Below are positions 41,434 through 41,673 of a stretch of 64,000 nt of DNA, piece by piece. Origin of the DNA: a virus. The position numbers were made by a program, and so were the translations under genes. Numbering within the stretch: the first letter of the stretch is position 1; each line of letters opens with the position of its first letter. The notes below the pieces were generated by a model that was not told where the DNA came from, made no database searches, and worked only from the letters and a program-made list of their open reading frames with translations. The stretch is from IMG/VR virus record IMGVR_UViG_3300045988_122866, positions 26,982 through 90,981 of that record. One strand, 5' to 3'.

Positions 41434-41673
41434 GTTTATTTTAGAAAAAATTTTTCTATCTTTATATTCTTTCTATATTATAATTATACAAAAATTTTTA
41501 AATATTGTAAAATAAAAAATTATAAAGTGTCAAATTTATTTAATTTTAAGTAAGTGAAATTTTTATCCAAAAAGTGTCAGTAATTATAATATATTTACAC
41601 AAAATAAAAGTTATATAATAATGAAAGGAAAAGATAAAACCTTTCATTATTATATTTCTCCGGAGGTAATAAC
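41434..41673. promoter_or_regulatory. AT-rich regulatory region between the LytTR regulator gene and the + strand late cluster
   Basis: Several TATAAT-like boxes. The motif AAAGTGTCA occurs at 41524 and 41571, with a related AAGTGAAA at 41552. Confidence 0.5.
41616..41654 (+). repeat. Perfect 14-bp inverted repeat with an 11-nt loop, 20 nt upstream of ATG 41674
   Basis: ATAATAATGAAAGG aaaagataaaa CCTTTCATTATTAT. This could be an operator or an RNA hairpin. Confidence 0.6.

Follow-up and report, generated by a model that had tools for sequence, protein, structure and literature searches.

We analysed a 64,000-nucleotide stretch of DNA (the window; positions 26,982 to 90,981 of the virus record IMGVR_UViG_3300045988_122866) from a phage that is lytic-type, reads TAG as a sense codon and infects gut Firmicutes. 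The element under study is the divergent spacer at 41431-41673 (243 bp, 15.6% GC), which separates a minus-strand gene for a response regulator with receiver (REC) and LytTR domains (40714-41430, 238 amino acids with TAG read as sense) from a plus-strand cluster of six genes (g148-g82-g293-g140-g181-g106; 41674-44605) with TAG-containing codons throughout. Regulator and cluster form a unit bracketed by two bidirectional terminator-like hairpins with A-/T-run flanks, each at a convergent gene junction: a perfect 19-bp hairpin between the holin and regulator genes (40668-40711) and a perfect 24-bp hairpin that closes the cluster (44585-44639). Read from left to right, the spacer holds candidate sigma-A-type promoters facing the regulator gene, a pair of short direct repeats, a box conserved across a phage family, and a perfect inverted repeat that ends shortly before the ribosome-binding site of g148. 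With moderate confidence we interpret these features as a promoter that is specific to the phage family, depends on LytTR and has a leader hairpin, and that stands back to back with sigma-A promoters of the regulator gene. The original prediction, made from the sequence of the window, that this spacer is a divergent regulatory region is supported.

The nonamer AAAGTGTCA is found at 41524-41532 (copy 1) and 41571-41579 (copy 2), and these are its sole occurrences on either strand of the window, where 0.51 would be expected. The related motif AAGTGAAA is present at 41552, and the predicted spacings of 27 and 20 bp hold when measured from GTG core to GTG core. LytTR regulators are reported to recognize two 9-bp repeats placed 12 bp apart (sometimes 11 or 13) and 4-11 bp, mostly 10 bp, upstream of the -35 element (PMC6193735), a geometry that puts about 23-34 nt, and with the most frequent spacing about 33 nt, between the repeats and the -10 element. 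Within the spacer, the distal repeat TAAGTGAAA (41551-41559, GTG core at 41554) and the proximal repeat AAAGTGTCA (41571-41579, GTG core at 41574) are two imperfect direct repeats of about 9 bp in the arrangement TAAGTGAAA-N11-AAAGTGTCA, which falls within the tolerated separation of 11-13 bp. A further 32-34 nt lead from the proximal repeat to the TATA of the conserved box, an offset that is fixed in all four LytTR lineages and that suits the box if it serves as a -10 element.

A LytTR gene lies between the holin gene and the cluster in four lineages only, viz., the window clade and the L034, L037/L039 and L075 types, and profile-based scans of viral contigs and of a metagenome collection for further LytTR lineages gave just the same four. 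The regulators of the other three are 28-47% identical to that of the window. The comparison set comprised about 25 diverged lineages, whose spacers were aligned on the first invariant A of the box (41613 in the window). The proximal GTG lies exactly 39 nt upstream of this A (A6 of the box) in all five representative spacers that adjoin a LytTR gene, which stand for the four lineages, and in none of the 20 lineages without the gene. The distal GTG lies 59-60 nt upstream of the box, i.e., 20-21 nt beyond the proximal one, in four of the five and again in none of the 20. In the window clade, L034 and L075 the distance between the two cores is 20-21 bp, and the distal site of L037 is degenerate (AAGAG); both GTG positions are at a conserved distance from the box, while the sequence between them has diverged among the LytTR lineages. 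We assign the LytTR site to 41551-41559 and 41571-41579 because this is the only pair that keeps its position and phase in all four LytTR lineages. Thus, the LytTR direct repeats that had been predicted are very probably present, but they are not the two exact copies, which lie 47 bp apart. The phased pair occurs once in the window, in the spacer, and so there is no other candidate target of the regulator within these 64 kb.

It is extremely improbable that these motifs are chance features of a very AT-rich spacer without a regulatory role, even though some of the statistics are compatible with chance. In Markov-1 simulations of a 243-bp spacer of 15.6% GC some exact 9-mer direct repeat, whatever its composition, is expected (P=0.91), and a single phased pair somewhere in 64 kb arises in 41% of shuffles. 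Likewise, a search of the window confirmed that exact AAAGTGTCA is confined to the spacer but placed its one-mismatch variants, which are mostly intragenic, at background frequency (19 found, 18.4 expected). Against chance stand the rarity in the same simulations of a 9-mer repeat with at least three G/C (P=0.0125) and of a perfect hairpin stem of at least 16 bp (P=0.0005), the conservation of position across lineages whose flanks have diverged, and the strict co-occurrence of the repeats with the LytTR gene (5/5 versus 0/20).

Copy 1 is best explained as the -35 hexamer of a leftward promoter of the regulator gene. A consensus scan of the spacer gives two candidate sigma-A-type promoters on the minus strand, P(-)1 (TTGACA-N18-TACAAT, 41504-41533) and P(-)2 (TTTACA-N17-TATAAT, 41483-41511), both of which score 11/12 and face the regulator gene. 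The -35 hexamer of P(-)1 (41533-41528) overlaps copy 1, which is best read as the reverse complement of its TTGACA(C); AAAGTGTCAA read on the minus strand is TTGACACTTT. We read copy 1 in this way on three grounds: the near-consensus promoter on the minus strand, the invariance of its C, which is the G of TTGACA on the other strand, and the absence of any motif placed like copy 1 in L034, L037 or L075. Copy 1 as a whole is invariant in all window-clade relatives, and the same base of copy 2 varies, from C to T, in three sub-lineages of close relatives. By eye, the TATAAT of P(-)2 appears orthologous to the TGnTATAAT -10 boxes that precede the regulator gene in L034, L037 and L075, where the regulator promoters (TTGAC(T)/TAGACT-N17-TGnTATAAT) stand at very different distances from the repeat pair. 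Copy 1 could also be a third LytTR site that overlaps the -35 and autoregulates the regulator gene.

These findings bear on the alternative contained in the original prediction, in which the exact AAAGTGTCA copies together with the middle motif are phased LytTR sites and the palindrome is the operator of a dimeric repressor. The uniqueness of the exact copies to the spacer, the scarcity of 9-mer repeats containing G/C (P about 0.012) and the length of the palindrome (16 bp and perfect, P about 0.0005) are in its favour. We nevertheless consider it quite unlikely, as a spacing of 47 bp corresponds to no LytTR geometry, copy 1 is not matched by any motif at the corresponding place in the other LytTR lineages and falls on a consensus -35 of the opposite strand, and the palindrome, as described below, does not behave as an operator.

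The box AAGTTATATAATAATGAAAGGA (41608-41629, plus strand; consensus TTTTyATATAAnnATGGAAAGA) is our proposed core promoter of the g148 cluster, comprising a -10-like ATATAA and the start region. Nearly all lineages have it upstream of their g148 homologue, irrespective of a LytTR gene, which most of them lack. A position weight matrix built from 32 non-redundant upstream regions has its highest-information columns at A-T-A-T-A; it finds the box as the sole strong intergenic match in the window and, in the 10-kb loci of diverged relatives, nearly always as the sole strong match. Lineages lacking the LytTR gene carry a different element, TTTTTGGnCAAA, at the position of the repeats, and 18 of the 20 have a TTGGnC/TTGACA-like element at positions -36 to -38 relative to the box. 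Between box and start codon there are 30 to 232 nt, depending on the lineage. This combination of a fixed distance to an exchangeable upstream element and a variable leader length argues for a core promoter rather than a translational RNA element, and the upstream activator module appears to be exchangeable between lineages. Dependence on an activator would fit the lack of a good, conserved -35 upstream of the box; AgrA sites, for example, lie just upstream of weak promoters with suboptimal core elements (PMC4227749).

Other identities for the box and its surroundings were considered and set aside. As a many-copy phage promoter it fails, since the degenerate pattern occurs at background frequency (62 found, 51 expected) and the matrix gave one intergenic match in the window. 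A sigma-A promoter with TTGGnC/TTGACA as its -35 lacks, by eye, a consistent -10 at 16-18 nt downstream, and neither sigma-54 nor SigE/SigK with a canonical -35 gave a match. Butyrivibrio virus Ceridwen, examined as a cultured reference, has no convincing box. A family of sites, TATAGAGTAATG, picked by eye before other late operons was dropped because its enrichment is circular, the pattern having been built from those very sites; its member at 28588 lies upstream of a terminator, and unbiased motif discovery recovered hairpin 3' arms instead. Among the relatives without a LytTR gene, L066, L072, L079, L085 and L091 have an upstream element that is part of a long palindrome (e.g., ACCAAAAATTTCCGGAAAATTTTGGT in L091), and a copy, TTTCCGGGAATTTTTGG, recurs downstream of the box hairpin, so that one site lies on either side of the core promoter, an arrangement like that of a looping regulator. 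The slot next to the cluster holds no gene in most LytTR-less relatives; L066, L072, L079 and L091 have an opposite-strand gene of about 155 amino acids there, which in L091 (2845-3270) diverges from g148 and matches by tblastn the gene g142m of the window (44639-45067, at the right end of the cluster). The sequence of g142m suggests a membrane and coiled-coil protein, and we rejected the slot gene as a DNA-binding regulator on this account. Genes appear to be inserted and rearranged with particular frequency at the junction upstream of the cluster.

The inverted repeat is real and perfect, as had been predicted, though its arms are of 16 bp and not 14, and the 14-bp arms first given were off by one base. 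They lie at 41613-41628 and 41640-41655 on either side of an 11-nt loop. The left arm is inside the box, and many box-bearing relatives lack the right arm. Folding, which had been proposed as a check, indicates a stable RNA hairpin in the plus-strand leader, with a free energy of about -17 to -23 kcal/mol (-22.9 for the leader, z-score -4.1). The palindrome does not cover the ribosome-binding site at which it had been placed: the stem ends at 41655, 18 nt before the ATG at 41674 and 6 nt before the ribosome-binding site, and both GGAGG (41662-41666) and the ATG of g148 (together 41662-41676) are unpaired, outside the hairpin and conserved in relatives. The hairpin is thus not of the translational kind that sequesters the Shine-Dalgarno (SD) sequence.

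Comparison of 23 non-redundant lineages shows what is conserved in this structure. The 3' half of the box (NTGGAAAG) pairs with the downstream leader in about 13 of them, and 10 fold better than 95% of shuffles, where about one would be expected. The stems themselves differ in sequence between lineages (GAAAGG/CCTTTC, GGAAGAT/ATCTTCC, CGGAAA/TTTCCG and TTGGTA/TACCAA), and L057, L068, L070, L090, L098 and the LytTR-bearing L075 have the box without a hairpin. Within the window clade, 85.5% of cells pair in the register given above, versus 40-57% in slid registers; there is one double change (L133) and several A-to-G changes that keep G-U pairs on the plus strand, and the stem has decayed in L135 and L146. 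That stems differ between lineages and that pairing is tied to the register speaks for selection on plus-strand pairing and against an operator bound by a protein in a sequence-specific way. The half-sites that a palindromic operator should conserve are not conserved among lineages sharing the regulator (GAAAGG/CCTTTC versus GGAAGAA/TTCTTCT), the right arm is absent from L075 and decayed in L135 and L146 despite conservation of the regulator, phages devoid of a LytTR gene also conserve the left arm, and the palindrome stops 6 nt short of the ribosome-binding site. A dimeric-repressor operator, as originally suggested, is therefore unlikely.

The conserved NTGG, at which transcription from the box would be initiated, opens the 5' arm in most of the lineages that have the hairpin, and this arm is SD-like (GAAAGG(A)). 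Both properties favour the reading that the hairpin is most likely a 5'-proximal stabiliser or processing element of the mRNA, by analogy with the 5' stem-loops and SD-like STAB-SD leaders that stabilise mRNA in Bacillus, such as those of aprE and cry3A (PMC3997798). De novo motif discovery across all plus-strand operon starts gave as its top motif a hairpin 3' arm with a T-rich tail just before the ribosome-binding site (log-likelihood 53.4, versus 35.7±1.8 for shuffles), and the hairpin belongs to a general punctuation class that precedes ribosome-binding sites of the plus-strand genes of this phage. Long perfect hairpins, usually with a T-rich tail, stand directly before ribosome-binding sites at 4290-4321, ~6043-6074, ~14610-14640, ~26208-26238, 28604-28635, 36649-36697 and 39030-39065. 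Several late-block hairpins have 5' arms beginning with (A)ATGG, and the one at 39030 has no T-run and is hence no simple terminator.

Membership in this class raises the alternative that the hairpin is an intrinsic terminator or attenuator limiting read-through into the cluster, in the manner of the hairpin and T-run elements between other plus-strand genes. The motif search does group its 3' arm and tail (CCTTTCATTATTATATTTCT) with terminator-like elements at 4311, 6064, 14630, 26228, 28624 and 36681, and ATTTTA follows the L037-type hairpin. On the other side, a scan of 41300-41800 found no rho-independent terminator, the stem has only three G-C pairs of 16 and is followed by TTCTCC, most lineages (e.g., L034, L036, L048, L060 and L084) have no T-run after the hairpin, and a strong bidirectional terminator is already present upstream at 40668-40711. 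A role in termination is, on this evidence, unlikely. An Rfam search of 41000-42200 returned no match at E<=1. We also rejected a leader peptide, for which an 18-codon open reading frame (ORF) beginning at ATG 41621 and ending in a TGA that overlaps the g148 ATG is available, as it has no ribosome-binding site and neither its peptide nor its frame is conserved.

Taken together, these features suggest the following arrangement. One or two host sigma-A-type promoters would drive the regulator gene leftward, and the family-wide core element ATATAA...TGGAAAG (41608-41629) would drive the six-gene cluster rightward. A dimer of the regulator would bind 41551-59 and 41571-79, sites that are 11-12 bp apart across lineages, and would activate, rather than repress, this promoter without a good -35; in relatives lacking the LytTR gene a different upstream module would serve the same core. 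The palindrome would be the core box joined to a downstream complement of it, and the transcript would carry a stem-loop at or near the 5' end of its leader, which may affect mRNA stability or processing and would leave the ribosome-binding site free.

Several points weigh against this arrangement. The LytTR domain of the regulator falls under the Pfam gathering score. The LytTR lineages are only four and share ancestry, so that the fixed spacing could be partly inherited, and the repeats are readable either as AAGTG on the plus strand or as CACTT on the minus strand, as in the sites of HdrR and BrsR. A T at -7, a requirement of sigma-A -10 elements, is not kept in the box, and the transcription start is one that we infer from the sequence of the box; with ATATAA as the -10 it would fall inside the left arm, and only the inner 6-9 bp of the 16-bp stem would be transcribed. 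Yet L133 carries its double substitution (A-T to T-A at 41618/41650) in the outer stem, the part that is untranscribed if the box is a -10. Finally, the hairpin is missing in about half of the lineages, including L075, and so is not essential to the system.

The extension of the window-clade stem into ATATAA, which would not be transcribed from the box as -10, keeps alive an alternative with an upstream start, which is possible though rather improbable. It holds that the box is an RNA leader element and that transcription begins at 41613 itself or, from the TATAAT at 41585-41590, near 41597; in that case the mRNA would carry the 16-bp hairpin in full at its 5' end or close to it, the -35/spacer zone would be overlapped by the GTG repeats, and the LytTR protein would be a class-II-type activator or a repressor. 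That TATAAT is perfect, the first base of the perfect stem is precisely the first invariant base of the box (41613), the outer-stem double substitution of L133 suggests that the full stem matters, and the TTGACA/TTGGCA-like hexamer of the LytTR-less lineages, 36-38 nt upstream of the equivalent of 41613, is in the normal -35 position for a start there. By eye, however, no -10-like hexamer occupies a conserved position between the repeats or TTGGnC and the box; its offsets differ among the window, L034, L037 and L075, and it is absent from L041 and L091. Moreover, top-information A-T-A-T-A columns are expected of a -10 element and not of the 5' end of an RNA, a LytTR activator with repeats centred at -38 and -58 would be out of the ordinary, and many lineages keep the box without the hairpin. 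We retain the reading of the box as a core promoter with activator sites upstream.

The regulator has matches in Pfam and PHROG. Its Response_reg match is above the Pfam cut-off and its LytTR match, which covers nearly the whole model, reaches 18.2 bits versus a cut-off of 22.6; the LytTR model is matched by all five diverged orthologues, and a profile of the orthologues aligns to full-length ComE (PDB identifier 4cbv). A LytTR-domain regulator is thus encoded next to the proposed site, by the divergent gene at 40714-41430. It does not have the phospho-acceptor Asp of a phosphorylation-dependent response regulator: Gly61 occupies this position, aligning with the Asp of FLDI/FLDV in the solved receiver domains 2qv0 and 6m8o, and the orthologues have Gly (L037 type), Asp (L034) or Glu (L075) there. 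The conserved Lys109 is kept. No kinase or membrane inhibitor partner was seen in the window, and the regulator is probably phosphorylation-independent, as judged from these residues. The gene has an in-frame TAG at codon 17 (41382-41380); in-frame TAG codons are present in all orthologues, with one near codon 17 common to the window clade and the L037 type. Full-length regulator consequently needs read-through of TAG, and it may be made only after the phage switches its code, an idea with which the TAG codons are compatible without being proof of it. There is no ribosome-binding site before the regulator ATG, one relative reads TTG at that position, and the L037-type regulator seems to start at a non-ATG codon after a strong AAAGGAGG.

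The cluster downstream is conserved in a large phage family, usually directly after the holin gene, and no function is known for any of its six genes. The protein of g140 (43311-43733) belongs to an unnamed family of 4,719 clusters with an invariant CC pair and no Pfam domain; the model of a homologue that is 99% identical (predicted local distance difference test score, pLDDT, 84) is a TNF/C1q-like jelly roll whose closest solved structures are the C-terminal domain of BclA, BxpB and ExsFA (TM score about 0.7). The same fold is also common in phage fibres and is known from their tips. The product of g106 (44285-44605) is a small HExxH protein with weak matches to ImmA/IrrE, DUF2268 and SprT-like metallopeptidases and could be a regulatory protease, and g293 encodes a Cys/Asn/Gly-rich membrane protein. 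A homologous module follows the lysis genes of the cultured Butyrivibrio virus Ceridwen, where all its genes are annotated as hypothetical. A pair of deletion variants was also observed among the relatives (L027/L139, IMGVR_UViG_3300045988_145683, and L013/L130, IMGVR_UViG_3300045988_124399): in one, the deletion removes regulator residues 1-179, the entire spacer, g148, g82 and the beginning of g293; in the other, residue 18 of the regulator is fused to a point midway in g181. These could be defective genomes, assembly artefacts or a sign that the unit is dispensable.

The fold of g140 invites a more specific, and very unlikely, proposal: that the box is a mother-cell promoter of the SigE/SigK type and the module, with g140 and the Cys/Asn/Gly-rich g293 among its members, a phage-encoded spore-surface-like cassette in sporulating Firmicute hosts, with exchangeable upstream regulators, among them a phosphorylation-independent LytTR protein needing TAG read-through, that tie its expression to the code switch. 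The SigK -10 box of C. difficile is CATATAAT, that of SigE is very similar, and bclA orthologues are discussed with the SigK regulon (PMC3789822). Most window-clade relatives read CATATAAT at the box, while the window itself has T, not C, at the first position; across lineages, position 5 of the box is C in 10 of 25, T in 15 of 25 and never a purine. The BclA/ExsFA-like fold of g140 is a further likeness to the SigK regulon. Promoters of this type combine a -10 of CATAnAnT or CATATAAT with ATA or AC at -35. By eye, however, the anchored sequences contain no canonical SigE/SigK -35 (AC or ATA at 16-17 nt), and TTTAC(C/A) elements occur only 9-13 nt upstream of the -10-like core of the box. Nor is the TNF fold specific to sporulation, being shared with phage fibres, and the homologous module is present in a phage of Butyrivibrio, which is not known to form spores.

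The wider window is consistent with late expression of the cluster. It has 30% G+C, and under the standard code its ORFs are broken up; once TAG is translated, ORFs of 100 codons or more add up to 69.2 kb instead of 40.8 kb and continuous genes reach 2,828 codons, so that standard ORF calls are fragmented here. An apparent 1.6-kb gap in ATG-initiated ORFs within 26199-28545 is probably a gene with a TTG start at 26287 after GAAAGGAG, which suggests one long ORF to 28545. ARAGORN found no tRNA gene in the window, and any suppressor tRNA must therefore lie elsewhere in the ~190-kb genome. The plus-strand block at 115-40669 encodes virion, tail and lysis proteins, its last gene being the holin, and the minus-strand block at 44639-63955 encodes replication proteins (NrdD, a DNA polymerase III alpha-like protein, Dda helicase, RecJ, primase and DnaB). 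TAG occurs at 1.67 per 100 codons in the virion/lysis block, 1.47 in the six-gene cluster (5.4 in g148 alone) and 0.37 in the replication block. In recoded phages the alternative code is used by late structural and lysis genes, and the pattern of the window agrees with this (bioRxiv 10.1101/2021.08.26.457843); on TAG density, the naming of a late cluster in the original prediction is plausible. No match to an RNA polymerase was found among ten large proteins scanned from the virion/tail and replication blocks, a set that leaves out the giant ORFs of 2,828 and 2,581 amino acids in the virion/tail block. Close relatives of the phage are contigs of 47-201 kb from viral and metagenome collections, and several of the metagenome records are labelled human gut; OLFZ01000029.1, OIZT01000010.1 and IMGVR_UViG_3300045988_118370 are examples of contigs nearly identical to the window.

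Phage LytTR regulators are annotated in databases, and we found no case in which their targets have been worked out. The locus supplies a concrete and testable one, in which both the repeat pair and the core promoter are defined and in which relatives that combine the same promoter with another upstream element act as natural controls. It also draws attention to an unnamed gene module of very large extent (g140 by itself makes up more than 4,700 clusters), located behind the lysis genes of many gut-Firmicute phages; each lineage clearly places this module under a dedicated control of its own. If the regulator is made only after the code switch, stop-codon recoding would be linked to transcriptional timing.

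The locus resembles known LytTR systems in that the regulator is encoded beside its proposed target, as with HdrR/BrsR of S. mutans, AgrA of S. aureus (agr P2/P3) and ComE of S. pneumoniae, and its divergent layout is that of agr P2/P3. As in these promoters, two imperfect 9-bp direct repeats 11-12 bp apart are followed after some 33 nt by an element, here a putative -10, for which no good -35 is present. Unlike in these systems, the setting is a lytic-type, TAG-recoded phage and the receiver has no phospho-acceptor Asp; the repeat core is A[A/T]GTG, which departs from the published LytTR consensus, the core is a phage-family box shared with phages that have a different upstream element, and binding is predicted. 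Late promoters of phages of Gram-positive bacteria combine an upstream activator site with a -10 and no -35 (phi29 p4; RinA/ArpU/Alt-type late activators). The locus is similar to these in the position of the regulator beside the structural/lysis block, the promoter without a -35 and the late-like TAG usage of the cluster, but the regulator is a REC-LytTR protein of the two-component type rather than a small sigma-like late activator, and its predicted target is an accessory-looking six-gene module rather than the packaging or structural operon. With STAB-SD and other 5' stem-loop leaders (PMC3997798) the leader shares a stable stem-loop that lies upstream of, and does not overlap, the ribosome-binding site and has an SD-like 5' arm; in contrast to them, the hairpin is absent in about half of the lineages, and a stabilising role is suggested by analogy. 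The proposed LytTR promoter switch is no new kind of mechanism, but a known kind found in a new place.

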